Source: an uncultured virus (IMG/VR IMGVR_UViG_3300045004_000209) (Duplodnaviria > Heunggongvirae > Uroviricota > Caudoviricetes). From it: a stretch of DNA of 64,000 nucleotides. The number at the start of each line of letters is the position of its first letter. Position 1 is the stretch's first letter. The notes beneath the pieces are model-generated. The model had not been told where the DNA came from. It was given only the letters and a program-made list of their open reading frames with translations, and ran no database searches. This document shows, in pieces, positions 25,301 to 52,141 of this stretch. Location of the stretch: the IMG/VR virus record IMGVR_UViG_3300045004_000209. One strand, written 5' to 3'. A program made the translations under genes and the position numbers.

Positions 25301-25627
25301 ATTGATATGTTTAAAATACTCTCTGCGCCACTTGGATCGAGTCGGATAGATACTGACAATCCATATGTTTCTTTGGCAACCTATGATGGTCCATGCTCTG
25401 GTTTCTCTATAGTGAATTTCGAGTTCTCTCAATTGTCTGTATGTGAATTTCTTAGTGATATCCTAGACATTCCAGAAGACTGCTGTAGCCAATCTGGATC
25501 TTCGAGTTCTAGCTCAAGCTCAAATCCACCTATTAAAGGACTTTTGGAAATTGGCTTGCCAACAAGAATACCTAAATTGGTAATTTCGGTGTCTGAAATA
25601 CCAGACATAGACGATTTGTCTACTTAA
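13349..25627 (+). CDS. Giant (4092 aa) putative tail/appendage protein with RCC1 repeats and several glycoside-hydrolase-like TIM-barrel domains
   Basis: RCC1 blades include IAAGGSHFLALLDNGSVVAWGDN, ISAGRFHNLLLTDDGNIETWGGN and VAGGYHHAVALRRDGTVACWGEN (about 15690-17240). Barrel-like segments include GVRGMYWDS, LLETIAKLKTIHPSVKFGICG and LDHLVFDYE. A long Ser tract lies near the C-terminus. Confidence 0.75.
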   Translation: MKSDYDQFDLLNRLVQDGYVKIAKGSLGATSSSYAPVAYLEGFSSDPSKAQPLSGNLSSGVSPDAKTIGLYSSNTGVGLSVETGSAVIAGVFNAGAGVVLVDSDNFARVDFDFMARSVLGASCVLSQQTVTTFEEAKTAVLLIASGTTGCQTDALVMHDPNHFVKSDRGDLGQVLSVLFQVLSSDYGINPISAYEDLFSAASFDHETDFLRIFKTEGDWSTGATATSFSVGKPFLAVAHRLNLLDPLFAAAGCRLNCDFDPWPAVDFMSLDDFNGFNMWDTGWNQSETSSGGYLWLRGWPYQKPSGRSPISRRVRPFVVIDRWGSPHPTAPPNNDFDNLTLKYKRLKFSGESHIVEDVSEVFTCQKDAQIDSICVNASAGDYSFKVTDPAFAGDGNRPQNYAVNRWLINSHSSTPPASQLPWSATITHSVFYDAVRYAIDGGNMNDIIMPGLLCDRGYFGFDASNPQPKPIPSGQRGYYPVDIPFCHSWKGDYRSRVEPSDPHSWRYPVWFQPDLQEYTYTDFGGSSRTVRLPSLFHDNLIKFYCGTLDASGQPTASGGGFIQYMIRKLCWYAKQPPNVPNVNAIGQRLFANVDASSIGSDPYRLPFDLSRDGNLLDYIIYDFIVEFAGDKTGTLWDWIQVVRGYGLMDEWLIRQTTNPKWSNLSWNGFTGVISILEAGNGRYGSSLTGSRSISEGLRSLVETRWDGSVEHPMLSRLQLVVSILENEVFALITKAIEVTLKAEGCMRPESSLPYYGYQCVSRLDADTTFKVGQFPERYGENYTSISVGHSPIIFYTLKDGSLRWVTTQDNFAGYDLLPPSELASLKYRQIAVGYGVVVGLTTDGNVVAWGGPALEHCDVTASEAAEAFTEQLASLGRTVKKIAAGGSHFLALLDNGSVVAWGDNSSAQLSDPNTVWTKVGSIPRPTAGDATLITNHIPYIDFEYKQDASSYLGYFPCITDDQDSCVLDASGDPVLQGNSCQISPQNRKYRLFRFNSLGCPFRGGDLPNSNFDTPSTSYPAPSATSWAGIVNWETDTGAPNDYQFARSTVASGVNVSLDGSWLSSAENISTGNSQGYTNSSGSLIPNSIFGTSGQSYIDISAGRFHNLLLTDDGNIETWGGNFFYAVTGSGLQTNEYVRMGSGRPNATAEASTSKWIENGREYPYPNAPPGDNTAPTVKTLKTTANSVSAISCGYYNNYAIRPDGSIFAWDRNEWGESLPNGGIPSGPFKQVAGGYHHAVALRRDGTVACWGENNDGECVVPVQFQNATTSDCVWVGAGQRFTVALKADGTLYAWGDLSKLVSSSTQGMRINLAERIYLPGTPLISANPGSDGTISNQLSWQGKYSLFECAGDIPTDVIYSGYSQYWLFTQFVDVSNMQSGLINTFYHGSSQYEVGTIDDQSSWPLVLMGGSGNYGGFLRLKTDGKLSSGTNSDDRSGPEETFNQTQLPGSRLTWVGNGARQNVPTANGFSSFTKALALVQSDNFISPPTPARSAMEPFADLKYGIYAIKQCAYSHPSQTCLAWVEWPGGFARPDVSPVGFIWNEADRQLPGESWPSRWHGGGVRSRELVHGWMWWEKMVHAMLVAQGHPLFTFWYGSAERIFTGKYAVVAEGIEDTVFNSTTVNAVLGDIERAVGSRRRWSIAFRHEYQFSFAETDSSDTPQSLVDGTIPPLTDAQMKPCITCVKVEETDDGSSPAYLLFRLSVPTPTEVPDISPNEQYPPNNRILNLKKFVVSVRSGSEEIARLRPNPKRPCGMWFSMPYEEGMTPPTFEMVEDTGVVSRRDGLTTYRLEGTKVAGYANASATTSGVKDTSWYRESRFSLHTQWSGLNCVLLYDQNVRNMKGAAISGSDCEVCLLSNCSAPNLSSASLSFYKRKHSTGSSTFESSSLPSCGAATAAKLAGARAAFSSAFNIDAQVRAAAQWNPDFAIVFLRSSDEPMWFPKPASTPSTDWDWSRDGATFNQWKLFANDGTVAGAVGMAMDPMAEYVAASIKYGIRLIAYFKMFSSIELDVQANNTNTSLTRFGITAPSGGWKISEVFHKATDIFGNLITASEHGNSGMTLLSIMSPSTRALMADWCKEVARQGLAKDVSNEPILGSDGYPLGVRGMYWDSMPIDPFRGDFSEDTVSWATYEGLFENFNQEFQIPKPDPSIFPFPLTYEKANNLGLVSLWTWLSNQNTTNITDLLSLDNPSVNWIESSQTNPVTFKSEVRRYLEWLRKKEKEFMNFIADTMKSYGHPDFAIIPAGIHSGHSYSIFANQHDSAYYSAGFKSELGVEQILDLRMPSNNTSPSTPPDMWLAQIADMLMSRSRDGKPSLMWQPLTLWSPSESDALRPPTDTEQSLVTCTSNLDSAYQAASGRFTFLGGKGIVRDHAIRGFLENKLLITWACGNIFDAMYFSGAGYSGENPDSLTGVENNDTSLPSDNASVYIRRLASMASSLKDGGLPKAKRSRVPWVAVVHSPEAAFGASIQGGVANAKWQQYYWPLMGAIHTCVDNGVPVSVVQDDSLDLYDELGIGVLVIPFARSAVPAATAKILNRFNGGVIWMQEEFLDSPDPGALVPPPLATLKNEFYDTSLMAGLSITKAKNSRNLLWNLIKIRGGEPPISATIGPSSGGEFPNPLAVPCHGFEVCVGDGSAQHMIITSATDLGWTDMTKHMNPIQYSTRKHLLENIPSGARSILSMCSSSAFIVADSFYKTTYTGSDQLIPLEHMPLLGKLNFYAGTPRTWGRYVRFNFKFSSTQLPVRARQFLLNKERGKFDPIDMVIEGGYSEMNDMIGVRTVEGVSITPCSYDLGSVIDVQLRDRVKDDDVTEFIVRAGQGSQFDPCPYPGLSCNSINMLRCLFDWLANAAEEDDKIIVRMYCDGSENDPDVSKIVLAKPIFEDLHASVVANPSAWQRVIDEPNSLTGFSSYCPLGFVVARDRVGNPSSPTDVTRIVTGIEFRGSYGSSTLAGMLPSLAGIVPYCSSESPLPPEVFCSDSEAVYTLTPEDQLMRDHILAKRSWANSLGAKPMLFVREDSSPSSQYRNIDDNGMPIPSGIIRYVNDLKSNIASDTAIGFASEITHVIIDLKSIFRSDNVDSDVFNRHSRWVSNPIDMIDPNDTLGSRDQILRELAAINGLLLETIAKLKTIHPSVKFGICGLGNFTINGNVGAAYFESSRFVSAETNVDIRQSSSWARQGVATRISEAYGPLLDAVDFVAVECTPASPTIISRQQISTKVGVATDAILHHYSQSKKTPRPIYVTNIGVFIFPTIPSYATHNCKMSKSQFNSSCIQPFMRHKIDGFIFDAIERDLKRSDFAGCPLVGGAIFSKTCWELGTVTCSSIAKAEYVASYNIQSMVSELANRTADPTRIVRPIWAGTWRGPVSASLDADVIDQTSADLTMYTYVKPIVPLYGPTSTSTFTDGGQSAPATFINTDRFNAVVSLLKKLPSGMRSLRMHYFYKAGVNKRMFYDNLGTPDQFVISSGVNVPSIWASNGVTAVKNAWTTIVGALKNQSAPLDHLVFDYEMRGIFTNWSLDADRVNSYANRPEFSKSWFGVASWKYWFTDGGRFDFNAQLEQLISSLSGPHPQNTPAYHYWNRGVSAIDAANLYEAFMPIGKAQYPGLSMTNYHAYSIAPWDHSYDANGHYDMQQGLAGNASSPYLYGQWYFPNTYSVATDDPTRLVRLDQSNATTTPFGRTPWNSLLLALQTLRAINRSCGGSPIRPWIAPRSWDGDDSGEVGFVNSSMWDELLRHACITGIDHIYSWEPDEFPQNSRADTFSRINSILIDINERLGGFSPYVAANQRLSFNSDFIVSGAQAVAGQNISKWVWRVTRSSDSIQLYETGVGLINMDADGGAWFVTDTSSPPLITTDFSSSSSSSSSSSSSYLSSSSSSSSKSSSSSSSSSSSSSSSSSSSSSSFNSNSSSSSSNSSSSSSSSSSSSSRSSSSSSSSSSYAYETPCIPSSVTLDVAAIIVELENLNDDTFLSVTSICTNNSYTRIYRTSKVIDMFKILSAPLGSSRIDTDNPYVSLATYDGPCSGFSIVNFEFSQLSVCEFLSDILDIPEDCCSQSGSSSSSSSSNPPIKGLLEIGLPTRIPKLVISVSEIPDIDDLST
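24902..25144 (+). repeat. 81-codon Ser-rich linker built from degenerate 27-nt units
   Basis: AGTTCTTCAAGTTCGTCTTCAAGCAGC (24974-25000), AGTTCCTCAAGTTCATCTTCAAGCAGT (25001-25027) and AGTTCCTCAAGTTCGTCTTCTAGCAGT (25118-25144). Confidence 0.9.
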
Positions 25628-25687: not shown

Positions 25688-28600
25688 ATGTCGTCGCAAG
25701 AATTTTCTAGAATTTCTCTTCATCTGCATGGCGTTGGTGGAGCCGGGCATGGCGCCCCCATACTTGTTTCTGGGAAGACATATATTGATGTAGGAAATGT
25801 TGTAGATTTTGAATTCGGGAACCATGCCTCTAGATTTAGATTTGACTATCCAGAGGCATATGGATCATGTGCTTTTGATATGTTTTTTGAAGATTTGGGT
25901 TTACCATCTGTTTGTAGATATAGAATAAAAGCTTCTGTATCGGTGCTTCACAATTTATTTTTACGTATATCACCATATGCCGTATTTACAAATATTAGGG
26001 TGGTTGTAAAATGTGGTCATTCGACATTCAGTAGTATCCAAATATCTCCTGAAGACATAATGGAAGCTCAGAATCCTGAATGGTTTTGGATAAGGCTTAA
26101 TTGGCTTCCTCCTGAGGCAGGCGAGCAAGATGTAGAGATGATGTTTTATGGTAGCGGCTATGTTGTAGATTGTTTTATCATTGCAGTAGAAAATCTTTTT
26201 TTGGAAGAGGAGAATCAGGCTGCAATAATATCTATACACACCGCTACTAGTGGGGGGAAATTCGCTATTATTGATGAAGTTGTTGTGTCTGACTTCAATA
26301 AAAACACTATTATAGATAGTTTTTCTTCAGCATACACCACTGTGCATATTAAAATTCTAGATGTCGCAGATGACAACACTGTTGTTGGCGAATATCCAAT
26401 AGTTGGAGTGGAGTCTGATGTCACCCCTTATGCCGAGGATGGATGGGTCAATTTTGGTTTACGATCACTCCCCGGGTTTGATGTACCTGCGATGCCAACT
26501 AAATTTGGCGTAGCCGTAATCCAAAGCCCTGCAAGTCCTTCTCGTTATTTTGTTTGGGATGAAGATGCCGTATCTGCATCTGATCAGGCAACCAAAACAC
26601 TGATTTATAGTACTAGTGGTAATTATGAAGTTCCTAACAGGATGGCTATTAGGGTGTACGCGGCATCACCGTCTTCTGATGTCTGTATACAGACAAGTCC
26701 TGCGATTCAAAAATCAATTACAATAACTGATTTTGATAATGCTTCTTTGAAACCTAAATTCACTAATACTGCATCTGTAGAAGGTGGCTTGGCTCTCAAT
26801 CTGCCAGAAAGGACGATAGTTTTTGTTGTTGATCAAAGCGGTTCTATGAGTTGGTCAGATAAAAGCAAGGCAAGATATGATGTTGCTTCAAACATATTAT
26901 CTGCAATAAATAATGCATATCCTGGTCGTCTCAATTCAGTGATATCCACCTTTCAAGGTGATACAATCAAAGTTGAGTGGTTCGCTGCTACTGAGGAGCA
27001 AATATCTACACCCTCAAACCCTCTTGTGGCAAAGGGTGGGGCGCTCAAGGACGAAGGAACTGATTTTTATGGAGTTCAAGTCGTCAGAAGATACGACCGT
27101 TATCCTGTATCTCCCACAGATGGAGACATAGTTGCAAATGGTTTGGTGGATATGCATGTCAATATATCTCCTAGTGGCGTGTCCAATGTGTACTACGGCA
27201 TTTATCCCTATGATTCTCGAGGTGTTTTCGGTGAAGCTAGCTATATTCGTGTGCCAATAGGCGGCCCAAGACCACCTGGAATCAAGAGTTTGATCGGTAA
27301 GGAGATGGTTGGAACTGGGGTCAAGAGATCGCAAGATGCAGCTCTGATACTGCACATGGACGAGGGCGGAGGAGAGAAATTATATGATTTTTCATATAAC
27401 AGCAATCATGCGTCTGTTTTTTATGGACCTGTGCCGCCTCTATGGGTGGGGGGCGATCAGTCTCCGCCCACGCCAACTGGTGAAGGCAAAGGTTTTGCTT
27501 TGCGTCTCAATGGTAGAGACCAATATATAAAGACGAACTCTGATGTAGGAAATATAGTTGGGGATCTTACTTTTGCCATATGGGTTTATGGAACATCTTC
27601 TTCAGGTAATAAATCGATAATATTTACTATTGTCAATGGAGACCCACTGATAATTTATTGGGATGGATCCCAAGTTCATAGTTATTGGTCTGGTAATTCT
27701 CTAAGCATGCCCATGAGCGCCGACAACTGGCACAGGGTTGCTTGGTCTTATTCAAAGGACTCTTCAGTAATCAGGTTGTATGTTGGTGCTGATTTTGCAG
27801 AAATATCCTGCAATACTGTCCAGTCTTTCTACATTGGTGGAGTATGTGTTGGTGCTGATCCCGATGGCAAATTTGCCCGATGGTTTGGCAGAGTTTCTGA
27901 GTTTTCCGTGCATGCATCTTTCTTGGAAGTTCAGGTTCAGTCCTCTTTGTCTTCTGGTGTTTTGCAAGATAACGGAGATAGAGCTGTCGTGCTCAGTTGG
28001 TTTGTTGGGCCTCATGCAGTTGGCGAAGGTGAAAATGTTCGCATAAAAATAAAGAGAACTAAAGAACTAGGGCATCTACGAGTTCTCAATCAAGACATAG
28101 CAGGAGCCTCTAACGTCGGATCTTATTTGGGCTCTGTTAATTCGAGACCACCAGGTTCAGGTAATCAGGATATTTCGCAAAGCGACTTGAGGGTTCGCAT
28201 GGCGTTAGGAGACGATGTTGGTCCATGCGATGTTGATCAGGGGGACACAGTTGTTGATGACTTTTTTGGCATCGGTGAGCACGAGTTCATGTTTAACGAT
28301 GACTTTGACAGCCCGTTAACACCTGGGGCACAAGGGCAGAGGGGAAGACTTATTTGGGGAGGCATGAGACACTTCTTCAGAATTTTTTCCTCTTCTAGTG
28401 ATGGCAGCAGTGATTTTTCTGCTCCCGAAGACAGTGGGCTTTTTCAATACACTCCACGCATGGTGCTAGAAAACGAGAGGCCATCAGTGTCATTGCCTCC
28501 AGTTTCTGTACTGTCGGCGAGGGCAAGCAGGAGCAAGGTTATACTTAACTGGATTCCTCCGATTTCTTCAGATGTTTCAAGCATAATTGTTTATTACCAA

Positions 28601-31600
28601 AAGAATGATTTTCCTATAGTTGAGCAAGATGGCGGACTTTCTTCTGGGTATTACCCAATTTTTGTTGGTGATCCTCAGGACAATTCATGCGTTCTACGTT
28701 CGGGTAGAATTTGCGTTGCTGATAGACCACTTGCTTCTATTAATGATTTTTTCGGTGAACTTTCACTTTTGGGAGAAGATTGTGCTCAAGATATAGAGCC
28801 AGGAAAAAAAGCATATTTCTCTGTGTACACTAGAGATAGATATGGCAATTTGAGCTCACCAGAGTCAATTGAGGTCATTATTCCACAATCTGAATCACCG
28901 ATAGGGGTGGGTCCAGAGGCTGTTTATGGTTTAAGATACGACCGAATCGATTCTAGAACTACCACTGTAAGATGGTTCAACCCTTTGCTTCCAAGACTCT
29001 TTTTTGATGTAAATGCATGGTTTGATGAGAGGGTGTATTTGTATTGCAGGGTTACTGATCAATACGGTAATGCACTGCCTGATCAGAACAACTTCACAAT
29101 CACGACCGAATTCGTATACTCTTCTTCCGATCAGGGATCAGTCACAATTCCTGGTTTTTGTTTCACAAATACAGATTTTACTTTTGACGCATTAACTAGA
29201 AGTGCGTCTGTGCAACTTTTTAAATTTAGAGATACTGTACGATTTAACCAAGTCAGCTTGGCAAATGGTTGGACACGTTTTGACATCAGCCTTGCTCCTG
29301 CGTCTCCCGAGCGACTTGCATGTTTGGAAAGTATTTTCTTTTCAGCCAAGGTTGGTATCACAATTAGGCAAAATGCTGTTGGAGATTCTGTAAATATTTT
29401 AGGATCTGACTCAACGGCCACTTCTGATAGGTCGTTCGCATTCGTCACCCAGCCAATTAGGATAGCATTTCAAAACCCCATAGGTATAACTCTTACAGCC
29501 GGGGCTGGAGATTCTGTTTCTTACGAGTGTACAGGTCTAGCAAGATCTTCGCTTAATGGGCAGTCATTTTGTGGTTCCCCCGCGTCGACTGTAAATCCGA
29601 CAACGGTTGAGGTGGGTGCTTATGCAGGAAGAAAGTTGCCGCTCTCTTTTGCTGTATTTGCGCAATACCGCAAAAAGGGTCTTCCTGCCGGTTCTGTATG
29701 CACAATAAACAGTTTTGATGCCGACATGCCTAAGTATAGCAGTTCGGTAGGTGATGAAGGTGCTTTTACTGAAGTTTGCAGTAATATAAACAATCGTGAA
29801 TTTTTTGGTGTTGCTGAACAGGTTGATCTTCCAGGGCCTAGTTTGTGGCAGAGGGTTGAAGCTGCTACAAATATTATTGATACAGCCACTTATAAAGATT
29901 CTACCATACTGATACCTAGTTCTCCAGTCGCCTACTTCAGTTCTCCTACAGAAATTATTTATTATAGCACCACCTTGACTGGTGGTATGTCAGTAGCTGA
30001 CTTTTACATCCAAGTTCCTGATGTATCTTGTGCTGCAGAGGTGTGCGCGACAGTTTCAATCAATGGACTCAGAAGGACAGTTCACAAATATATAGTTGTT
30101 GCTCCCACCCTTCGTGTGGATTTTACTGCACGATCTCCAATTGCTAACGGTCTTGATATTGCTCAGCAGGTGGCTGAAATTTCCATAATAGACCCAGATA
30201 AATCTAATGCCACAACAGTTTTACGTAAGCCGAGTCCAGACGGCACTCCCGTCAGGTGGGAATTGATAGGCTTCAGAAACAGCAGAAACCGTCCATTCTA
30301 TTCAACATCACAATCAGATGACCCAAGATATGCCTTTGGAGTTTGGGATTTTACAGTTGGTGGCAAGTCAGATAGGGTGTACTTCGGCCCAGCTTCTGAT
30401 GTGGTAACCTCAATAGTGACCCGATCATCACCTGGAAGTAGTATAGGAGATAATGGGGACGTAAACTTTGGCGGTTCTCAGTCAGTCTACTACATAATTC
30501 CTGAGGAGTATGTGATAAGGGTTAGTGTTTCTCTCTCTGGCCAGTCGGCTTCCGTAAGCACCGTAGCTTGCTTGATTCCTTATCAAAATGAGGAGGTAGA
30601 AGACCCTATAGTAGAAAATTCTTTACAGACAGCAGCGATTTATGCTGACGGTCCGGTGCAATCTTTTGGATACAGAAATACACAAATTATATATAGCGAT
30701 GGAGAGCAGAGTGCTATATTCAGAACTGTAAGAGATGTAATGTCTTTAGATCAAATCGATCAAAACATCAATACTGATAATTTTAAGAGTTGTTACATAT
30801 CTGATGACGGCTCTTTATACGGGTCTTTGCCGAATGCCACTTATGTGCCGATGTCTGAAAATACAGTAATCGATGTCAAGATTCATCGGCCAGTGCGTTT
30901 CACTGAAGAGGGGTCGACATCTATACCCTATTGGAGTAGCCCTGTCAAAATAATAAAAGGCGGACTTGTATACACGAATGATTCCACTCTGCAACTTGAA
31001 CCGGGTAATCAAACCTATTTTAGAGTTTTAAGCAACGCATTTATACCTCTCAAGTGGAATAGGTTTGGCAAGCCAACAACTGCAAGAACAGGTAATGTGA
31101 CTTGCGAAACTTTTTCAGTTGCTGGCTGGTCTGATTTGCCATCATCAGATCCTGAAAACCCCAACAACTGGATTGATTATGATATTGCCGTATCTGTTGC
31201 GGCGAATCTTTTTGTCAACTCCTCTATCTATACCTCCACAGTTTATGGAGAGGGCAGAAAGGGCATGGGGGTGCCTGAAAAACTCATAAAATTTAGAGAG
31301 CCACTCAATGTCCACTTTGGATGGATAGAGAGGGATGGGCAAAGGTTGTTTACCAATGAAGTACTTGCTGATGGAGAAGCACATCACAATTTGGTATTTG
31401 TCGTTACATTCGCAAATAATCCTGTGCCAGCAGATGTAGATGTATATATCACATCTTGCGGAAGTGAATTGCCAGGAGTATCTGCACAAACACTCAAGAC
31501 TCAAGTTGTAAATGAAAGCGGATCTTGGTATGAGCCAAATGAAATAGGCGAGGTTCCTGCTCTATCTTCTGTTGTGAAAGTTGCCATTTTGCCAATATCT

Positions 31601-34600
31601 CCAGGCATGTCTTTTAGCACAACAGTATTTGCCGAATGCAACTATGATAAAGGAAACTTTGGATTCGTTTATAGACAACGTGTCCATGGAGTATCCTTGT
31701 CATATCAGGGTGGTTCTTTTGCAGCGCTGATGGGTGGCGACGGAGGTGGCGACGGAGGTGGCGACGGAGGTGGCGACGGAGGTGGCGACGGAGGTGGCGA
31801 CGGAGGTGGCGACGGAGGTGGCGACGGAGGTGGCGACGGAGGTGGCGACGGAGGTGGCGACGGAGGTTCGGGTGATGGATCTTCTGGATCGCCTATACCA
31901 CGCCCAGATCCTTCAGAATTGACTGATGAGGCGGGTCTGATTTTTAGAAATGAGATCGTCTTGCCACTAACAGCCACATGCTACATACACGACCTTAATG
32001 ATGCAGACAGCGGTTGGACAAGAACCGCAGATATGGGTTTCAAGAAATGCTGGCACGGGATGGCGTATGCACATGGTCATTTTTACTCTATAGGAGGATT
32101 GACATCTGCTGGAGTGACCAACTACATGGAGCGGTGGTCGTCATCAGAGAACAGGTGGAAAAGTTGCGCCAAAATGCCGAAGCCATTGATGGGTATGTCG
32201 GTAGCAAACGACGATCAATACATCTATGTCGTTGGCGGAGTTGAAATGGTTTTCCTCGGATCTGGCTCTTCAGGAGGTTACAAACCAAAATGTTCAAGTT
32301 ATTTCTTCAGATATAGTATAGAGGCAGATGAGTGGCAAGAGATGCCCCCCCTGCCACAGAGAACTGATTTGCCTCCTTCTCCCTCTTCTGGAGGTTTCGG
32401 TGGCTCAGGATCAAATTCTGGATCACCTCCTGTTATTAGACATGGTCATGCGTTCGGGAAGTGCATAGTTGCTGGAGACTACATTTTTGCCCTGTGTGGG
32501 GCAAGCAATGTCGAGCAAAACGTACTAGAGGTTGCAGAAGTTTCTAAATATGTTCATATTTTCAGCATATCAGCTAATAAGTGGCTTGGCTCTTTCTTGG
32601 TTCTTGATAACGATCTTGCCACCTATGGTCGTTTGTATCCTGCAGCTGTAAAAATTGATGATGCTAAATGGGCATTTACAGGGGGAAGCAGTATAATCAA
32701 TGAAGAGGTTTCCTATACATTTGGGAATGCGGATAGTGTAGTAACCGTTGAGGAATCAAGGGAGGTTTATTTCGCCGATTCTTTCATGTTTGATGTGTCA
32801 AATATTGACTCCTACTTTAGTTCACTTTCTTCTTCTTCTTCTTCTTCAAGCAACAATTCTTCTAGTAGTTCTTCAACAAGTACTGCTAGACCGTTTGATA
32901 TATATTCTGCAGATTCTATTTTTGCTGATATACCTGATCCTCGAGGGAAGGCTGCGCATGTTGATTGCGATGGCACTTTAATAATCATTGGTGGAAAACT
33001 TCCTCCAATTGGAAAATATCTTGGAACCAATGCCACCAAGAGAATGGAAATACTTGAGTTATCCAACGGTCTTTATGTTAAATCTCAAGGAAGGTCTCTT
33101 ATTGGTGGCAGGTTGTTGCTAGCATCCACTTGGGACGGAGAGTCTTTGGTTATGGTTTCTGGAGGCATAACCAATGGCAAGGCGCCAGGATTTTGCCAAA
33201 TTGCAGTCGAAGCGTTCGGAGAACAGACTGAGTCCAATGTTCAGCCTATACAGGATGGATTAAGAATTGAGGATGTCCAGGCAAGTGCTAGGCTAGATGG
33301 AATTTCTGGAGTTGATCTCAGGATTAGGGTTTTCGACGATGAGGGTAGACCTCTTGATGATGATGTTGTTGTAGAACTTGATGGCTACATAAAATTTCAA
33401 GGTAATGATTTAGAAGAGCTGTCGGTAGGCACTGGAGGCATTCCTAGCGGAGGAGGAACTGGTAATATATTTAGGCGAAGGAAAAGGAAGGGAACAAAAA
33501 TATTCCCTGTGAGGATAGATGACCGTATTGTTAACATATCGTCTGGTATTGGCTATGCAAGATTGGCTCCAAGATCTGAAGATCCTTTCAGACCATTAAG
33601 TGATATAGTAACTCTGCTTGGCAGCAGCGTTATAACTAGTGCTGATATTGGGGTTGTGGATACTTTGGCAGCTACTGATGAGCTAGATAACACCATCTCG
33701 ATTCGTCAAGGGAAAACACGCTTTCCATATCAAGTAATTGTGGCAGCAAGGATAGTTGATAATTTTTACTACGGCAGTACAGAATTTGATCCAAGTGCAG
33801 AGGCAGATCAAGCAACAGAAAACGAACTCTCATTCCCAGAGCTTTCTGACGAAGACAGATATGCTGATGCTGGTGAATTTGATTATGCTGCAGTCATGCC
33901 CGTATTCTCGGTAAGAAGAATAAGTGGGATGCTGCCAATTCGAGGAGCCTCTTCTAATGATGGGGTTGAAGCTTTTGTTTCCACTGCGATAGGAGTCATA
34001 TCTGGCATTGGTGACACTGATCTTTACTCTTTTGTTGCGCCTATTAATGGCATAGTTGACATATGTATCGAACCTAGGGGAATAAGCACACTTCGCAGCT
34101 CTATACGCATATACAATGAAGAAAGGCAGTTGGTAAAATTTGAGTCTTTGACAGACATTAATTTGAAACCGATATACAGGGCTTATTTTGACGAAAATGG
34201 AGATCATACATCGCCGCCAGATAACAGTTTTTTTGCATCAACAGGTATTCTTATAGATGTCAATACATTATCCAATCAAATATACTATGTTGAAGTGTCT
34301 TCATACGACCAAACTGAAACAAAATATCAGGTTGGAGAGTACAGAATTATTGTTTCATACCCATTAAATGAAGTCTCTGAGCAGCAGGCTTTTGGTACTG
34401 GTCAAGTTGCTTATCCAATGCCGTGCAACGGCAACATCGATTGGGAAAAATTAGAAATATGTTGGGAGCAGATGGTTCCTGTGTCTTTCTTGATAGAAAA
34501 TGGAGTTAATCCTCCCGAAGCCGATAGGGAGGTAATTTATGGTTGTGAGATGGCTCCGCACACTGTATGCGTTCGACCATGTCTGATGTCTCTCAATGAT

Positions 34601-37600
34601 CCCAAGTCAATTATAGGAGTTGCTTCTGGAGACTTGAATTGGAAGATTCTTAGGTTACCGCCCTATCCATGCGGTCAGCAGCCGCAGCCGCCTCAGGGGG
34701 GAGAGGCATGTGAAACAGATTGGCCATCTCCTGACTGCAACAAGGAAATCGGAGAGTTTGCAGTTGATCTTTGCGGTCAGTTTGAAAACGGAGAGAATTT
34801 CCTCAAATGGGCGTGGTCTCCGCAATCGCCCTTGTGGATGTGTAAGACAGATTTGTGCAAACACTGCCCAAATCTATGCAGCATAAAATCTTGGCCTGAT
34901 TTCACAATTCAATCATGTCTTAACACATGCAGCGACCCAATAGTGTGCAACACTCATACAGAAGATGACAGAATAGACTTCTCTTGTGCTGACAGATATT
35001 GGACAACCTATCTTGGCTTTGATCTTAGAACTAGATCTGTTTGGGGTCAGGTTGCTTTTGGCCCTGAAGGCAACAGAGTTCCTACAGAATTAAATCCTAT
35101 ATATCCAGGATATGACCCTGCAGCGGTTCAGCAGGCTCAAATAGACCCATCAACTGCAAATTTCTCACAATATTTGATGCCAACAATTTTGCCCAAATTG
35201 AGAAAGAATTTTAGATTCCTAGTCACATGCGAAGTCACTGGTCAAAACTTTCAGTTTTCAGCTCTCATGTCAGGATCTAGCAGTGACTCTTCGAGATCTG
35301 ATTTAAAATTTGGCAGTATTTCTTCATGCCCATTCACATGCCCATCGTGCTTGAGAAATACCAATACGGTTGGGGGTATTTCTTGCACTGGATCTAATAA
35401 CACTATTTGCACCCCTGTTACCGTTGTTGCGAATAATTCTAGTTTCAATTTTAGATCCTTCACATCTATGGCTTTAACATCGGGCGACTCTTCTAGTAGT
35501 TCTTCTGATGGAGTAGGAGGATCGGTTTATTTACCACCTCCTCTTGAGGCGCAACTTGATTCAGAGGCCTTGCGATTTGACTTGATAGGAGGACAATATG
35601 CATTTACCAATTTCTTGTCCAATGCAGCTGGGATAACTTTACTAGATCTGCCCGACAATCCCATCATACAGTATTACTCTGATCTTGACTGGGTTCCCAC
35701 TGTAAGAACTTGGAAGTATGAAGGTCAAAATGCCGTTTCAGACGCAATACAGCGCATCGGTGAATTGTCAGGCAGCCGTCCGTTTGGATGTTCTCCAATG
35801 TATGACGCAATTGCTCAAGCAGCAAGAGAGTCAGACGCTATAACTGATCAGGATGGCTCTGTAATTACATTTGTTCTAACTGACGGGGAAGAAAATTTGA
35901 GTAGATTGAATGCAGTAGAAACTGTAGGAGATCTAATTTCAATCAGGGGTTCTAGAAATAGTCCATTATATTTCGTCAATCTTGCAGACTATTATCCTAC
36001 CACTGTCTCGGCGCAAGCAACCTTAGCAGATCAGGGAGAGCAGAGATATATGGTTCTCTCTACTAATGGCGCATCCATGGCGATTGTTGATGCCTCTTCT
36101 GTTGACTCTGTGTCTCGCTCCGCTATCAGAATAGCTCGTGGATTGGCAGGCGGTCAATACCAAGCAGTACTCAATTTTGGTCGTAAGGTTAATCTAGAAT
36201 CTCTTGAGGTGGTTGGTAATGAATCTGCCATCGTATCGGTTTCAATATCAAAGACAAATGACGGTATTTCTTTCTATGGGACGGATGTAGTCGCGACTCC
36301 CTCCATGCCTTGGCTAGGAGATCTTATGGGAGATATTTTTAGAATAAACATTTCATTGATCCAAAAATTTCCTGAAGAGAATGAATCTTTTGTTGAAGCG
36401 CTGCTGAGATCCGTAACAATAAAATATTCTTTACCTACAGAGACGCTCATAGTCTCGAAGCCAAATCAATTGAATGCTGCGCCACATCAGATTGTGGGCG
36501 TTGCACATGCTAGTATTGGAGAAGCAACTGATGTTAAGTTCTCGGCGGCAGCTCATCCTTATACATCTTGGGAGAAATTTTCTAATGAAATAACTCTCGC
36601 AGCAGTTGGCGGTGGCAGGGTTATCGTACCTATAAGGTCAGCTGATCCAAATGGAGTATTTGTGGATGCATTGATAAAGGTGTCTCCCCACTTGTATGTT
36701 TCTAGGCTTGGCCCTTGGCAGCGTGGATCTTCTGTTGTTGTCAAATCAGGTGCAGATGTTGTTGAAGCAGATAAGTATAGGGCTGATGCTGATTCTGGAA
36801 CGGTTGTCTTCAAATCCGCCTATGATGTTGCCGACATGACAATAGCAATCGGCACACCATACGAAGGAGTGTTTGCTTTCAATATCGCCAACAAATCATT
36901 TGAGCAGACCGCCTGTATAGAATCTTTTGTTGTTGATATGCTAGAGGCTCCATATCCAAGACCTGAATATAATTCCAAGCCTGAAGTGCTTGATCTTAAA
37001 TTCTTGTCTAGTTTTTACACTCAATACTCAACCATATCTATATATTATCTGTTTGTTGATGCTGATGGCGACCAAGAGGACATCGAGAAAACAGAAATAC
37101 GTTGGTATAAAAACGGCGTTGAGATGCCAATTATATTTGGCAGCAAGAAATATAATGATCTTAATGACGCAAATGACACATTGTATGTAAATCAGTTTTG
37201 GACTAGAGAGTACTATTCTGATGCACAGACATCTGGACGCCCTGCTGAAATTTTAGCGGCACAAAATGGAGAGAGTTTTTTCAATATTGGAGACCAAGTT
37301 TATTTTGAAGTCAGACCCCACGACGGAAAAGATTTTGGTGCTGTTGTCAGGAGTCCTGTGATAACAATAGTTAGTCCGCCACTCCGTCCTCAAAGTTTTA
37401 CATTGATACCTAAATTGGAATCAGATAGATATGTAACTATAAGTCTATCCAATATGGCATTTGCATTTGCAGATTTTGACTTTTATGCTCCCGCAGAGAT
37501 TTTGGAGACCAAGATAAGGTGGAGATATCGTCTATCAGGAAGCGACGAGTTTGTCAATATAGGTGATCCGCGTCCTCTCAGGGAGTCTGCTGGATTCGGT

Positions 37601-38131
37601 GGAGGTGATTATGTGCTTGAATTGCATCGCAATCAAGTTTCTATTCTCTACCAGAGTGGCACGGCTAAAGGCTTCCCGATAGGCGGACGAATATCCGCAC
37701 AATTGATCTTTAGAGATAATTTGACTCTTGATAGTAACGAGTTGATTGTCTCTAACACTATACCAAGGGTTTCAGGGTCAACTGGGGCATTTGGGGATTT
37801 GGGTAGTGGAGACGTTCAATTGAATATACAATTGATTTTTTCAGATATTGACATTGAACTCAACCAGCCGAATCAGAGTATTTCATACCAAGTTGTTTGG
37901 GAAAAGAGTACTGAAGGAGGTGATTTCGTGCCTTTTTCGCCAATTTCTCCACAACCAACCAACAACACTTTAACTTTGTATAGTTACTCCAATGGAACTG
38001 GCGACTTTAACTGCTTCGAAGGCCCAGCAATAACATTTAGGGCAACCGTGACACCGCATGATGGATTAGAATATGGTCAACCGTTCGTCATCGAACACAA
38101 CACTGATGGTTGCGGAGACTTTTCTTGGTGA
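25688..38131 (+). CDS. Giant (4147 aa) putative virion adhesin/baseplate-associated protein with discontinuous VWA, LamG, FN3-like, Kelch, PPC-like, Cys-rich and Ig-like domains
   Basis: VWA MIDAS IVFVVDQSGSM (about 26815-26850) and GCSPMYDAI..FVLTDGEEN (about 35785-35895). LamG LILHMDEGGG..LRLNGRDQYI..WHRVAWSY..FGRVSEFSV. Kelch FYSIGG/IYVVGG/IIIGG. PPC-like GDTDLYSF..YYVEVSS..GEYRI. Ig-like YLFVDADGD..IRWYKNG..VRPHDG. Confidence 0.8.
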   Translation: MSSQEFSRISLHLHGVGGAGHGAPILVSGKTYIDVGNVVDFEFGNHASRFRFDYPEAYGSCAFDMFFEDLGLPSVCRYRIKASVSVLHNLFLRISPYAVFTNIRVVVKCGHSTFSSIQISPEDIMEAQNPEWFWIRLNWLPPEAGEQDVEMMFYGSGYVVDCFIIAVENLFLEEENQAAIISIHTATSGGKFAIIDEVVVSDFNKNTIIDSFSSAYTTVHIKILDVADDNTVVGEYPIVGVESDVTPYAEDGWVNFGLRSLPGFDVPAMPTKFGVAVIQSPASPSRYFVWDEDAVSASDQATKTLIYSTSGNYEVPNRMAIRVYAASPSSDVCIQTSPAIQKSITITDFDNASLKPKFTNTASVEGGLALNLPERTIVFVVDQSGSMSWSDKSKARYDVASNILSAINNAYPGRLNSVISTFQGDTIKVEWFAATEEQISTPSNPLVAKGGALKDEGTDFYGVQVVRRYDRYPVSPTDGDIVANGLVDMHVNISPSGVSNVYYGIYPYDSRGVFGEASYIRVPIGGPRPPGIKSLIGKEMVGTGVKRSQDAALILHMDEGGGEKLYDFSYNSNHASVFYGPVPPLWVGGDQSPPTPTGEGKGFALRLNGRDQYIKTNSDVGNIVGDLTFAIWVYGTSSSGNKSIIFTIVNGDPLIIYWDGSQVHSYWSGNSLSMPMSADNWHRVAWSYSKDSSVIRLYVGADFAEISCNTVQSFYIGGVCVGADPDGKFARWFGRVSEFSVHASFLEVQVQSSLSSGVLQDNGDRAVVLSWFVGPHAVGEGENVRIKIKRTKELGHLRVLNQDIAGASNVGSYLGSVNSRPPGSGNQDISQSDLRVRMALGDDVGPCDVDQGDTVVDDFFGIGEHEFMFNDDFDSPLTPGAQGQRGRLIWGGMRHFFRIFSSSSDGSSDFSAPEDSGLFQYTPRMVLENERPSVSLPPVSVLSARASRSKVILNWIPPISSDVSSIIVYYQKNDFPIVEQDGGLSSGYYPIFVGDPQDNSCVLRSGRICVADRPLASINDFFGELSLLGEDCAQDIEPGKKAYFSVYTRDRYGNLSSPESIEVIIPQSESPIGVGPEAVYGLRYDRIDSRTTTVRWFNPLLPRLFFDVNAWFDERVYLYCRVTDQYGNALPDQNNFTITTEFVYSSSDQGSVTIPGFCFTNTDFTFDALTRSASVQLFKFRDTVRFNQVSLANGWTRFDISLAPASPERLACLESIFFSAKVGITIRQNAVGDSVNILGSDSTATSDRSFAFVTQPIRIAFQNPIGITLTAGAGDSVSYECTGLARSSLNGQSFCGSPASTVNPTTVEVGAYAGRKLPLSFAVFAQYRKKGLPAGSVCTINSFDADMPKYSSSVGDEGAFTEVCSNINNREFFGVAEQVDLPGPSLWQRVEAATNIIDTATYKDSTILIPSSPVAYFSSPTEIIYYSTTLTGGMSVADFYIQVPDVSCAAEVCATVSINGLRRTVHKYIVVAPTLRVDFTARSPIANGLDIAQQVAEISIIDPDKSNATTVLRKPSPDGTPVRWELIGFRNSRNRPFYSTSQSDDPRYAFGVWDFTVGGKSDRVYFGPASDVVTSIVTRSSPGSSIGDNGDVNFGGSQSVYYIIPEEYVIRVSVSLSGQSASVSTVACLIPYQNEEVEDPIVENSLQTAAIYADGPVQSFGYRNTQIIYSDGEQSAIFRTVRDVMSLDQIDQNINTDNFKSCYISDDGSLYGSLPNATYVPMSENTVIDVKIHRPVRFTEEGSTSIPYWSSPVKIIKGGLVYTNDSTLQLEPGNQTYFRVLSNAFIPLKWNRFGKPTTARTGNVTCETFSVAGWSDLPSSDPENPNNWIDYDIAVSVAANLFVNSSIYTSTVYGEGRKGMGVPEKLIKFREPLNVHFGWIERDGQRLFTNEVLADGEAHHNLVFVVTFANNPVPADVDVYITSCGSELPGVSAQTLKTQVVNESGSWYEPNEIGEVPALSSVVKVAILPISPGMSFSTTVFAECNYDKGNFGFVYRQRVHGVSLSYQGGSFAALMGGDGGGDGGGDGGGDGGGDGGGDGGGDGGGDGGGDGGGDGGGDGGSGDGSSGSPIPRPDPSELTDEAGLIFRNEIVLPLTATCYIHDLNDADSGWTRTADMGFKKCWHGMAYAHGHFYSIGGLTSAGVTNYMERWSSSENRWKSCAKMPKPLMGMSVANDDQYIYVVGGVEMVFLGSGSSGGYKPKCSSYFFRYSIEADEWQEMPPLPQRTDLPPSPSSGGFGGSGSNSGSPPVIRHGHAFGKCIVAGDYIFALCGASNVEQNVLEVAEVSKYVHIFSISANKWLGSFLVLDNDLATYGRLYPAAVKIDDAKWAFTGGSSIINEEVSYTFGNADSVVTVEESREVYFADSFMFDVSNIDSYFSSLSSSSSSSSNNSSSSSSTSTARPFDIYSADSIFADIPDPRGKAAHVDCDGTLIIIGGKLPPIGKYLGTNATKRMEILELSNGLYVKSQGRSLIGGRLLLASTWDGESLVMVSGGITNGKAPGFCQIAVEAFGEQTESNVQPIQDGLRIEDVQASARLDGISGVDLRIRVFDDEGRPLDDDVVVELDGYIKFQGNDLEELSVGTGGIPSGGGTGNIFRRRKRKGTKIFPVRIDDRIVNISSGIGYARLAPRSEDPFRPLSDIVTLLGSSVITSADIGVVDTLAATDELDNTISIRQGKTRFPYQVIVAARIVDNFYYGSTEFDPSAEADQATENELSFPELSDEDRYADAGEFDYAAVMPVFSVRRISGMLPIRGASSNDGVEAFVSTAIGVISGIGDTDLYSFVAPINGIVDICIEPRGISTLRSSIRIYNEERQLVKFESLTDINLKPIYRAYFDENGDHTSPPDNSFFASTGILIDVNTLSNQIYYVEVSSYDQTETKYQVGEYRIIVSYPLNEVSEQQAFGTGQVAYPMPCNGNIDWEKLEICWEQMVPVSFLIENGVNPPEADREVIYGCEMAPHTVCVRPCLMSLNDPKSIIGVASGDLNWKILRLPPYPCGQQPQPPQGGEACETDWPSPDCNKEIGEFAVDLCGQFENGENFLKWAWSPQSPLWMCKTDLCKHCPNLCSIKSWPDFTIQSCLNTCSDPIVCNTHTEDDRIDFSCADRYWTTYLGFDLRTRSVWGQVAFGPEGNRVPTELNPIYPGYDPAAVQQAQIDPSTANFSQYLMPTILPKLRKNFRFLVTCEVTGQNFQFSALMSGSSSDSSRSDLKFGSISSCPFTCPSCLRNTNTVGGISCTGSNNTICTPVTVVANNSSFNFRSFTSMALTSGDSSSSSSDGVGGSVYLPPPLEAQLDSEALRFDLIGGQYAFTNFLSNAAGITLLDLPDNPIIQYYSDLDWVPTVRTWKYEGQNAVSDAIQRIGELSGSRPFGCSPMYDAIAQAARESDAITDQDGSVITFVLTDGEENLSRLNAVETVGDLISIRGSRNSPLYFVNLADYYPTTVSAQATLADQGEQRYMVLSTNGASMAIVDASSVDSVSRSAIRIARGLAGGQYQAVLNFGRKVNLESLEVVGNESAIVSVSISKTNDGISFYGTDVVATPSMPWLGDLMGDIFRINISLIQKFPEENESFVEALLRSVTIKYSLPTETLIVSKPNQLNAAPHQIVGVAHASIGEATDVKFSAAAHPYTSWEKFSNEITLAAVGGGRVIVPIRSADPNGVFVDALIKVSPHLYVSRLGPWQRGSSVVVKSGADVVEADKYRADADSGTVVFKSAYDVADMTIAIGTPYEGVFAFNIANKSFEQTACIESFVVDMLEAPYPRPEYNSKPEVLDLKFLSSFYTQYSTISIYYLFVDADGDQEDIEKTEIRWYKNGVEMPIIFGSKKYNDLNDANDTLYVNQFWTREYYSDAQTSGRPAEILAAQNGESFFNIGDQVYFEVRPHDGKDFGAVVRSPVITIVSPPLRPQSFTLIPKLESDRYVTISLSNMAFAFADFDFYAPAEILETKIRWRYRLSGSDEFVNIGDPRPLRESAGFGGGDYVLELHRNQVSILYQSGTAKGFPIGGRISAQLIFRDNLTLDSNELIVSNTIPRVSGSTGAFGDLGSGDVQLNIQLIFSDIDIELNQPNQSISYQVVWEKSTEGGDFVPFSPISPQPTNNTLTLYSYSNGTGDFNCFEGPAITFRATVTPHDGLEYGQPFVIEHNTDGCGDFSW
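31733..31867 (+). repeat. Perfect 12-bp tandem repeat (GGTGGCGACGGA) x11 encoding (GGDG)n
   Basis: Directly visible with no mismatches, in frame within the 4147-aa ORF. Confidence 0.97.
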
Positions 38132-50384: not shown

Positions 50385-50926
50385 TGGAAGATATTCGTGT
50401 TGAACTTTCTAAGCGTCTTAGCCTTGTTGATTTCTTGGCAGAAAGAGGCATCAGGCCTGCTCGTCAGTATGGAGACAAATCTGTATACAGATGCCCAATT
50501 CATGATGGAGATAAGACGCCAAGTTTTTATATCTACCAAAAAGAAGATGGTCGACAGGACTGCTACTGTTTTGGATGCAAATTCTACGGGGACATTGTTA
50601 GGTTAAAGGCGAAGTTAGATTGCACATCGCAAGACCAAGCTTTTGCTGAACTTGCATCCCGATGTGGTTTTGATCCAGATAGCCCTGATGCTATTATTGA
50701 TGACTGTGTATCAATAGTCGAAAGCATGAGCAGCGTTAACGACGATGTGGATGAGATCAAGTCTATGATTGTTGAATTGACTGCCTTATACAGGGTTCAT
50801 AGGACAGTTGAACCCGTATCTGAAAAATGGGGGCTTGTTTGGGCTCGTGCTGATGATGCTGCTCGCAACGGAGATTTGGAGGGGCTGATCAATGCAAGAC
50901 CATTTGATCCAAGAAGTAATTGTTAA
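50384..50926 (+). CDS. Stand-alone CHC2 zinc-finger protein (primase zinc-binding domain)
   Basis: CPIHDGDKTPSF..CYCFGC..GDIV with no TOPRIM motif. Start 50381 or 50384 overlaps the dnaB stop. Confidence 0.85.
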   Translation: MEDIRVELSKRLSLVDFLAERGIRPARQYGDKSVYRCPIHDGDKTPSFYIYQKEDGRQDCYCFGCKFYGDIVRLKAKLDCTSQDQAFAELASRCGFDPDSPDAIIDDCVSIVESMSSVNDDVDEIKSMIVELTALYRVHRTVEPVSEKWGLVWARADDAARNGDLEGLINARPFDPRSNC

Positions 50927-51895: not shown

Positions 51896-52141
51896 ATGCA
51901 GTATCGCTGCACGCTCAAGTCTCTTTCCACATTTTCTGGGAACCCAAAAAAGTTTTCAACGCTTTGCGACAAATGTCAAACCTCTGATTGTGAAAACCCT
52001 ATAGAGTTTGTTTCCATTAGCATTTTGGGCGTAGCAAGTAAGCACAGAATATACAAAAACAGCACAGGAGGTCAGCAGGTGGTAAGGTGTGATGGTTTCT
52101 CTTCTGATATCTCTGGAGGAGACGATGAAGCGCAGCAATAA
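51896..52141 (+). CDS. Small Cys-rich (putative zinc-binding) protein
   Basis: C..LCDKCQTSDC..C pattern. Confidence 0.65.
   Translation: MQYRCTLKSLSTFSGNPKKFSTLCDKCQTSDCENPIEFVSISILGVASKHRIYKNSTGGQQVVRCDGFSSDISGGDDEAQQ

Follow-up and report, generated by a model that had tools for sequence, protein, structure and literature searches.

The giant gene encoded in the window, by which we mean the whole stretch of 64,000 nucleotides analysed here, specifies a protein (P0001) in which two distant segments probably build one discontinuous VWA domain of the MIDAS type. The source of P0001 is an uncultured giant phage, and the frame remains open over 12.4 kb, uninterrupted. The main parts of the gene are the following:

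25688..38131, + strand: giant gene P0001, 4147 aa, a single open frame with an ATG start, stop codon included.
25688..26782, + strand: N-terminal region, aa 1-365, without family match, its length varying across relatives.
26810..26959, + strand: VWA N piece, aa 375-424, with beta1 at 375-382, alpha1 at 395-410 and beta2 at 415-422 (secondary structure from the AlphaFold model).
26960..35692, + strand: insert, aa 425-3335, ~2,900 residues, interrupting the VWA fold at its beta2-beta3 hairpin.
35693..36145, + strand: VWA C piece, aa 3336-3486, with beta3 at about 3339-3344, beta4 at 3394-3398, beta5 at 3427-3432, beta6 at 3462-3466, and flanking helices.
36146..38128, + strand: C-terminal region, aa 3487-4147, without family match.

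The initial annotation had located the halves of a split VWA domain in these two places, and all of the strings quoted in it, as well as D382 and TDG at 3398-3400, were found in the ORF. On the N piece these are TIVFVVDQSGSM at aa 376 (nt 26813), RYDVASNIL at aa 396 and VISTFQG at aa 418, and on the C piece DAIQRIGEL at aa 3352, GCSPMYDAIAQA at aa 3367, ITFVLTDGEEN at aa 3393 and PLYFVNL at aa 3426. The MIDAS signature, given as "DxS/TxS/T, T, and D" in the passages of PMC12607857 used here, is divided between them. The DxSxS motif of the N piece corresponds to D382-Q-S384-G-S386 at the C-terminal end of beta1, while the C piece holds S3369 (in G-C-S-P) and D3399, positioned at the end of beta4 within T3398-D3399-G3400. 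The spacing usual for the MIDAS Thr/Ser, about 70 residues after DxSxS, appears only when the insert is set aside.

Profile searches and structural models describe the two pieces as complementary. When the whole of P0001 was compared with Pfam VWA_2, aa 377-420 aligned with positions 1-44 of 107 only (E 8.5e-4), and a 131-aa segment holding the N piece gave E 2.9e-5 and 25.1 bits at a cut-off of 27 bits. The C piece of P0001 searched alone gave no match in Pfam, while the C pieces of relatives aligned, below the cut-off, with the remaining part of the same profile (P0134 with positions 51-106, the fragment P0073 with 52-106). Half a domain is expected to score below the cut-off of a profile made for a contiguous domain. 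Furthermore, the P0001 C piece resembles positions 73-140 of 204 in phrog_7371 (E 5.8e-7), and a profile built from 6 C pieces produced 134 matches at E <= 1e-3 among 1.84 billion representatives. This profile also retrieves small, Pfam-verified contiguous VWA proteins, P0135 with 33.6 bits and P0141 with 36.0 bits at a cut-off of 23.8. An HMM made from five small contiguous VWA proteins gave an insignificant score with the N piece (E 4.9).

The N piece, modelled by AlphaFold within aa 330-565, forms a beta-alpha-beta unit of moderate confidence (pLDDT about 60-80), after which only beta strands follow, except for a short helix at aa 445-452. A second model, covering aa 3236-3500, leaves aa 3236-3335 without secondary structure (pLDDT under 50) and predicts aa 3336-3485 with pLDDT 80-94 and only three parallel strands. 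Neither piece thus makes a full VWA domain with local sequence in these models, as the initial annotation had supposed. In a VIA-align comparison of the C-piece model with 48,161 chains, nearly all of the best 50 rows were VWA/MIDAS domains (Z 8.2-11.7), for example 4wfq_A (Z 11.7, rmsd 2.3 over 130 residues) and BatB 3ibs_A (Z 10.0), with SpaC 6m48_A and integrin beta chains also among the matches. Foldseek against PDB found no match at E <= 0.001, the best being BatB at 2e-3. The structural match begins at approximately residue 54-56 of short VWA chains (3ibs_A 54..209, Rpn10 56..192, BchD 54..192), so that the missing part has the size of the N piece.

The residues of the predicted metal site are conserved on both pieces. 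D382 and S386 were found in all 74 N pieces and S384 in 73, with one T in its place; among 147 C pieces, S3369 is present as S or T in 146 and D3399 in 145. This conservation extends down to about 20% identity, and DxSxS is invariant in the 9 close relatives of P0001. When aa 3322-3492 and aa 366-428 were co-folded as two separate chains with our own alignment, the score was 0.83, and the best of 3 controls reached 0.00. Of 157 solved complexes 116 attained this mark, against 2 of 215 mismatched pairs, a benchmark that is only rough here, as our own alignment was used. Contacts agree between runs in at least 93%, with a partner pLDDT of 78 or more. The nearest contacts connect 377-382 with 3393-3397 (beta1-beta4) and 416-421 with 3341-3344 (beta2-beta3), as in the sheet of VWA domains, and D382/S384/S386, S3369 and D3399 are all within the listed interface. 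The Rossmann fold with a convergent MIDAS that the initial annotation asked of the joined halves is thus obtained in the models, with the full order beta3-beta2-beta1-beta4-beta5-beta6 seen in models only. The co-fold may owe its success to the model's memory of solved VWA domains; what it shows, at the level of a prediction, is that each piece resembles the part of a VWA fold which the other lacks, and this does not imply their association in P0001.

In regard to the distribution of this organization, both pieces are present in one chain in 67 of the 143 collected proteins, originating from many sources, where 1484-3111 residues (median 2004) separate them. Each of the 29 locus records examined with 10-kb flanks, representing 28 distinct places, contains both pieces, either in the same ORF or in adjacent ORFs. 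Besides 14 further single-ORF loci, there is a roughly 1000-aa class, in which, at all seven loci, the N piece is found on an upstream ORF of 1922-2081 aa and the C piece on the ORF that follows. At five of these seven, a TAA or TAG stop is followed by ATG 2-8 nt later; at locus L003 the ORF with the C piece is irregular at its 5' end. At another locus, L021, the pieces lie on adjacent genes with the break before the Kelch module, and this split could be a one-base error, as a 56%-identical relative has one ORF. The gene boundary inside the insert, with both pieces kept, is real in related phages.

Taken computationally, the pieces are complementary, co-conserved parts of a VWA domain, neither of them complete locally, and it is likely that the domain takes shape only once both segments come together. 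We propose that beta1, the DxSxS loop, alpha1 and beta2 would come from aa 375-424. From there the chain would exit via the beta2-beta3 hairpin into ~2,900 residues comprising FN3-like, LamG, GGDG linker, Kelch, Cys-rich and other modules, and re-enter at about residue 3336 to add beta3-beta6 with the MIDAS residues Ser3369 and Asp3399. The folded VWA domain would close the insert into a giant loop and form one divalent-metal site from both segments. The path suggested by the initial annotation, leaving after beta2 and returning ~2,900 residues later into one VWA domain, is supported by all the computational tests applied, namely the complementary profiles, the local models in which neither piece is completed, the superposition of the C-piece model on VWA structures from about residue 54, the co-fold, the co-conserved MIDAS and the two-gene forms. 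We infer that the pieces would fold together in the real protein, and in P0001 in cis. In the related giant phages, where a gene boundary lies inside the insert, the VWA domain needs two polypeptides and may act as a clasp joining two chains.

Alternatively, the VWA fold could form between molecules, the N piece of one copy pairing with the C piece of a second in a domain swap that drives oligomer or head-to-tail fibre assembly, with no intrachain loop. If the two-gene phages form the domain, they can do so only in trans, the co-fold was itself run on two separate chains, and a tether of 2,900 residues constrains little in favour of cis. However, the high local concentration within a single chain favours cis, and the partners in the two-gene phages are different proteins, which would give a heterodimer and not a polymer. 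We see a small chance that P0001 assembles in this way.

The two segments could also be independent of each other, the N piece being a relic beta-alpha-beta unit packed on neighbouring modules and the C piece a truncated Rossmann-like domain, alone or completed by other sequence, without a shared MIDAS. Each piece alone stays under the Pfam gathering score and the N piece alone is modelled as a moderately confident beta-alpha-beta unit, as such an explanation would expect, but it fits poorly with five MIDAS residues kept across both pieces in 74 and 147 sequences, with pieces that local sequence does not complete, with a C-piece model in which precisely the ~54 starting residues of VWA structures are absent, and with the presence of both pieces at all 28 places, and we regard it as very improbable. 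That a chimeric assembly or a misread frame has fused two unrelated genes is hardly credible, given an architecture common to 67 proteins of many sources, nine independent, full-length relatives of 4136-4365 aa aligned end to end with 45-84% identity, and even conservation along the 12.4 kb open frame.

The discontinuous domain proposed here would host an insert about fifteen times its own size, which is extreme among interrupted domains. The profile matches of the N piece and the C piece are 2893 residues apart, and the insert is conserved over its full length in relatives. The following modules were recognized in it:

27035..27274, + strand: FN3-like all-beta module, aa 450-529, directly after beta2, from AlphaFold strands.
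27509..27922, + strand: LamG / concanavalin-like module, aa 608-745 (Pfam Laminin_G_3, E 5.4e-6, 27.1 bits at a cut-off of 27.6).
31733..31864, + strand: (GGDG)11 linker, aa 2016-2059, by direct reading of the sequence.
31973..32362, + strand: partial beta-propeller of Kelch repeats, aa about 2096-2225 (above the Pfam cut-offs for Kelch_6, E 3.1e-12, and Kelch_1, E 2e-8).
33290..33781, + strand: module shared with the two-gene phages, aa 2535-2698, from blastp of the roughly 1000-aa class against P0001.
34385..35422, + strand: Cys-rich stretch, aa 2900-3245, with 23 Cys (6.65 per 100 residues vs 1.17 upstream).

From the modules named by the initial annotation, Kelch was thus recovered by Pfam, and (GGDG)n and the Cys-rich stretch by direct reading. 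LamG falls just under the cut-off, and the FN3-like module has weak structural support: most of its top 50 structural rows are FN3 domains, but the best Z is only 4.6, and Pfam gave no match for aa 450-529. The Ig-like and PPC-like modules were not confirmed by Pfam. The GGDG linker is the least conserved stretch of P0001 (identity to distant relatives of 0.15 in aa 2001-2050), while many Cys of the Cys-rich stretch are invariant in the 9-sequence alignment. In the two-gene phages, the module at aa 2535-2698, which has no match in Pfam, stands at the N-terminus of the separate protein carrying the C piece. Outside the insert, the N piece starts in relatives anywhere from aa 53 to aa 2171, and the C-terminal region at aa 3487-4147 is kept in all relatives carrying the C piece.

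Domains interrupted by other domains are already known. Canonical MIDAS VWA domains (BatB 3ibs, TFIIH p44/Ssl1, integrin alpha I, VWF A1, CMG2/TEM8, ITIH1, Rpn10, BchD) share the five-residue MIDAS signature with P0001 and the fold with its C piece (Z 8.2-11.7; for most rows the rmsd is 2.3-3.5 A across about 130 residues). They are contiguous, however, with about 180-200 residues, while in P0001 the first ~50 residues lie 2,900 upstream, and in two-gene relatives on another gene. The integrin beta I-like domain and the Gram-positive pilus tip adhesins RrgA and SpaC also have a VWA domain with loops or "arms" near the MIDAS face that shape ligand binding, but their inserts measure tens of residues, compared to thousands in P0001. 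The specificity-determining loop of integrins sits between strands B and C, and in RrgA, which has nested domains, VWA sits inside as the inserted domain and is not the outer one that is interrupted. Likewise, the accounts of PilY1 considered here, concerning the type IV pilus tip adhesin of Pseudomonas aeruginosa, present a MIDAS-bearing vWA-like domain into which another domain is inserted; there, however, the insertion is at beta1-alpha1, not at beta2-beta3 as in P0001, the insert is small, and the protein belongs to a cellular pilus.

The closest organization is that of the vWA domain of Caulobacter CpaL, which in the passages of PMC12607857 used here consists of a first piece at residues 148-203 (~56 residues, with DxTxS), an insert, and a piece contributing T and D of the MIDAS. 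P0001 breaks at the same point, after aa 424, its first piece having 50 residues. In those passages, however, the CpaL insert comprises about 180 residues in two beta-barrels, compared to ~2,900 residues and many modules in P0001, and CpaL starts with a pilin-like domain and is part of the Tad pilus, while P0001 is phage-encoded and lacks a hydrophobic pilin-like N-terminus (it begins with MSSQEFSRISLHLHGVGGAGHG..., without a hydrophobic segment). The same passages describe no two-gene form of CpaL. The domain of P0001 would work like that of CpaL, but P0001 is not a member of the TadG / CpaL-type minor pilins; its split VWA is an extreme new variant beside CpaL with the same insertion site. 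Our full-text literature search found no paper describing a split VWA of the P0001 type. The division of the same domain over two genes in relatives is extreme, and P0001 offers a test of how much discontinuity a Rossmann-type fold tolerates. It would also represent a natural protein-fragment complementation system, with a predicted 50-residue plug, 150-residue socket and shared metal site.

In regard to function, the predicted MIDAS site may bind metal and, by analogy with other MIDAS adhesins, possibly an acidic ligand. A bolder and rather doubtful extension is that the split VWA serves as a fold-complementation clasp, in which the 50-residue beta-alpha-beta "plug" docks into the three-quarter VWA "socket" of another chain or of a distant part of the same chain, and the metal site is complete only on docking. 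Giant phages could assemble, and perhaps metal-gate, multi-megadalton fibres by this means, and single-chain forms could swap pieces between copies and polymerise. If true, it would be a new principle of phage-appendage assembly, comparable to donor-strand complementation in pili. The label of virion adhesin given by the initial annotation is supported by none of our results, and no structural-gene match was found near P0001; the product of the giant gene is likely a candidate for host-surface binding. Around the giant gene lie genes for phage replication and for glycosyltransferases rather than for pili. A search of GenBank phages for the giant gene gave no match, and its carriers are phages of about 0.5 Mb without cultured relatives. 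In each of the 3 complete genomes searched, the giant gene is present as a single copy.

The best-supported reading of P0001, the giant protein under study, is that two distant segments form one discontinuous MIDAS-type VWA domain: an N piece (aa 375-424) with beta1-alpha1-beta2 and the DxSxS motif (D382-Q-S-G-S386), and a C piece (aa 3336-3486) with the rest of the domain, including MIDAS residue S3369 and the TDG motif (T3398-D3399-G3400). They are separated by an insert of about 2,900 residues (aa 425-3335). The initial annotation had proposed such a split domain from sequence strings that were all located in P0001 where it had placed them; the split itself was confirmed, and its interpretation as a single domain is supported by profiles, structure models, co-folding and MIDAS conservation. 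The features concerned are the following:

13349..25627, + strand: giant ORF 1, 4092 aa, directly upstream of P0001, with RCC1-type repeats (Pfam RCC1_2, E 6.5e-39)
25688..38131, + strand: giant ORF 2, encoding P0001, 4147 aa
31733-31864, + strand: perfect (GGDG)11 repeat inside the insert, in the part of the protein least conserved in relatives (identity 0.15, aa 2001-2050)

In regard to sequence profiles, Pfam VWA_2 covers aa 377-420 of P0001 with only positions 1-44 of its 107 (E 8.5e-4 with the whole protein; with a 131-aa segment, E 2.9e-5 and a score of 25.1 bits, where the cut-off is 27). The C piece alone gave no Pfam match and no PDB sequence match at E <= 10, and it matched positions 73-140 of the 204 of phrog_7371 (E 5.8e-7). 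A profile built from six C pieces (A2) and run against 1.84 billion representative proteins produced 134 matches at E <= 1e-3, the weakest of which include small proteins with an ordinary contiguous VWA domain according to Pfam (P0135, 33.6 bits, and P0141, 36.0 bits; cut-off 23.8). In the small contiguous proteins, the C-piece alignment begins at about residue 80. An HMM made from five small contiguous VWA proteins recognized the C piece at E 1.3e-12 and the N piece at just E 4.9. Since the N piece corresponds to VWA_2 positions 1-44, while positions 51-106 and 52-106 are matched by the C piece of the giant relative P0134 and by the fragment P0073, respectively, the two stretches are, at the profile level, complementary and non-overlapping parts of one family profile, with the break at about positions 45-50. 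Word-based protein searches returned nothing, whether the query was the C piece (proteins of 93-298 aa) or the N-piece alignment (longer proteins), the latter negative being of little weight.

Alternatively, each piece could be completed into a VWA domain by its own neighbouring sequence, an outcome that the initial annotation had regarded as contradicting its proposal, and AlphaFold2 predicted no such completion at either piece. In the model of aa 3236-3500, calculated from a 27-row alignment purposely kept free of contiguous VWA proteins, aa 3336-3485 form helices and only three parallel strands (pLDDT 80-94), preceded by aa 3236-3335 with pLDDT under 50 and without secondary structure. A possible beta-alpha-beta unit at aa ~3294-3321 was thus rejected as a local substitute; this stretch is also absent from a class of relatives encoded by two genes, where about 25 residues lie between the preceding module and the C piece. 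At the other end, the model of aa 330-565 (22 rows) contains beta1 (375-382), alpha1 (395-410) and beta2 (415-422), followed by one short helix (aa 445-452) and otherwise by strands only. The structural search with this N-piece model found nothing at Z >= 5, and the all-strand module downstream of beta2 was weakly FN3-like (best Z 4.6). For the C-piece model, Foldseek against the PDB gave nothing at E <= 0.001, with VWA entries at the top of the list and BatB first. In the exhaustive VIA-align search, the top 50 were almost wholly VWA/MIDAS domains (Z 8.2-11.7), including TFIIH p44/Ssl1, a Catenulispora VWA, ITIH1, integrin I domains, BatB, VWF A1, CMG2/TEM8, Rpn10, Sec23/24, MDN1 and BchD. 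Because the aligned ranges open at about residue 54-56 of short VWA chains (3ibs_A 54..209, 8amz_W 56..192, 2x31_A 54..192), the C piece is, as modelled, a VWA domain without its first ~54 residues, and the missing part corresponds to the N piece in both size and content.

For co-folding, aa 366-428 and aa 3322-3492 were entered as separate chains, with the corresponding columns of the 9-row alignment A1 supplied for each. They scored 0.83, against 0.00 for the best of three controls; among solved complexes 116 of 157 attain this mark, among mismatched pairs 2 of 215, counts that are only rough as a self-made alignment was used. The runs share at least 93% of contacts, with partner pLDDT of at least 78. 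The closest contacts join 377-382 to 3393-3397 (beta1-beta4) and 416-421 to 3341-3344 (beta2-beta3), so that strand neighbours follow the VWA sheet order, and the interface listed takes in the full set of five MIDAS residues, in agreement with the initial proposal. Such a result indicates that the pieces resemble complementary VWA parts and does not imply binding; it may stem from VWA structures already known to the model.

Both pieces are retained in nine full-length relatives of 4136-4365 aa (identity 45-84%), in which D382, S384, S386, S3369 and D3399 are invariant, and conservation is even over the whole length of P0001. In the more distant P0011 (3014 aa, 22% identical), aa 54-114 are the N piece and aa 2221-2391 the C piece. 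When our own HMMs of the two pieces were run on all 143 collected proteins, 67 had both in one chain, 1484-3111 residues apart (median 2004). The three positions of the N piece are D in 74/74, S in 73/74 (one T) and S in 74/74 pieces, and those of the C piece are S/T in 146 and D in 145 of 147. That three MIDAS residues of one segment and two of the other persist at identities as low as about 20% would be difficult to account for if they did not act together. Among the relatives, none with a short insert or without an insert was found, the smallest single-chain gap in the collected proteins being 1484 residues, and ordinary spacing occurs only in the small, distant contiguous VWA proteins. In P0062, P0067, P0082 and P0086 (4625-5031 aa) the N piece lies ~2035-2170 residues from the N-terminus, and therefore a further giant extension precedes the split domain.

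A tblastn search of GenBank phages with the C-terminal 826 aa gave no relative, and the locus search in viral contigs gave nothing with the C-terminal 847 aa of P0001 or with P0017 alone; contig loci were recovered once alignments served as queries. One ORF with both pieces is present in 14 locus records (L008-L015, L017-L020, L022, L023), of which L008 and L009 have identical coordinates and scores. Three complete genomes of ~0.5 Mb have exactly one C piece each.

A C piece without an N piece was found in 73 of the collected proteins, some of them fragments, others falling into several size classes with consistent Met starts. Proteins of the ~1000-aa class open with the equivalent of P0001 aa 2535-2698, and the C piece follows ~25 residues on. 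Their alignment (A3) recovered seven loci in viral contigs of 87-548 kb, and in all seven the N piece is near the N-terminus of the directly upstream ORF (1922-2081 aa; 55-67 bits) and the C piece on the next one. At five of these junctions, the stop is TAA or TAG and the ATG of the downstream gene comes 2-8 nt after it, and in L007 a GTG overlaps the TGA. A single recoded stop or one conserved frameshift is an unlikely source of the two-gene form, since the junctions include all three stop codons and differ in their frame relations. In L003 (9985-10298) the C-piece ORF opens 190 nt past the upstream stop, while the protein match starts right after that stop; a frameshift or an interruption near the 5' end of this ORF could account for the irregularity. 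A second break point, located before the Kelch module, is found in L021 (the contig of P0014), where the ATG overlaps the upstream stop. This split may be a one-base error, as the 56% identical L022 has a single 3151-aa ORF, but a start of the L021 type is common to 16 clusters.

If the pieces form one discontinuous VWA domain, the insertion point would be its beta2-beta3 hairpin, a turn that in the VWA fold lies on the MIDAS face. Once folded, the domain would hold both ends of the 2,900-residue insert together or, in two-gene phages, two giant proteins, and docking could take place either within one chain or between copies. The MIDAS would bind a divalent cation and, by analogy with other VWA adhesins, an acidic group of a ligand.

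The closest published precedent is CpaL of Caulobacter, whose predicted vWA is reported to comprise residues 148-203 and 384-626, with a beta-rich insert of 180 residues between them and D160/T162/S164/T470/D515 as MIDAS (PMC12607857). The two proteins share the VWA break point, the P0001 insert is ~16 times as long, and the two-gene forms among P0001 relatives are a point of difference. In PilY1, the insertion is a small domain that lies between beta1 and alpha1 (PMC11525922). P0001 has neither a pilin-like N-terminus nor pilus genes nearby, and is therefore placed outside these pilin families. Full-text literature searches, with subscription journals mostly outside their reach, turned up no account of any split VWA domain from a phage. 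P0001 represents a new, extreme version of an already known discontinuous VWA arrangement.

Among the insert modules listed in the initial annotation, Kelch, the Cys-rich stretch and the glycine-rich linker were recovered, LamG came just under its Pfam cut-off, and the FN3-like one was recovered only weakly (the Z of 4.6), while Pfam searches of eight segments taken one by one gave no match to FN3, Ig-like, PPC-like or Cys-rich families. The first four of these modules, together with flanking glycosyltransferases, fit a putative surface-binding appendage. No recognisable virion module was found around the P0001 gene by any search run: as a test of the virion role that the initial annotation had proposed, PHROGs and Pfam gave nothing on six upstream ORFs, and Pfam tail sheath and terminase families had no match in four related phage records each, where controls did match.

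The window is occupied by a large-phage gene run on one strand, from the two giant ORFs through glycosyltransferases to a replication module (helicases, primase, DNA polymerase III alpha-like enzyme, UvsX-like recombinase, SSB). The two adjoining giant genes, each of more than 4000 codons, take up 24.7 kb. At least five glycosyltransferase-like ORFs lie in a row directly 3' of the P0001 gene (38147-42866, +) and a sialyltransferase-like ORF at the window end (63159-63902, +); their products might act on the giant proteins or on the host surface. The DNA polymerase III alpha-like gene consists of two overlapping ORFs (52089-53417 and 53407-55365, +) matching adjoining stretches of phrog_405 (33-435 and 439-942 of its 1190 positions); gene splitting, a frameshift or an error could each explain this. 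Primase-like matches to phrog_47 fall on two ORFs about 7.5 kb apart, covering positions 29-112 (50369-50926, +) and 129-325 (58510-59193, +); with the profile divided in this way, the zinc-binding and catalytic parts of the primase seem to be separate genes.
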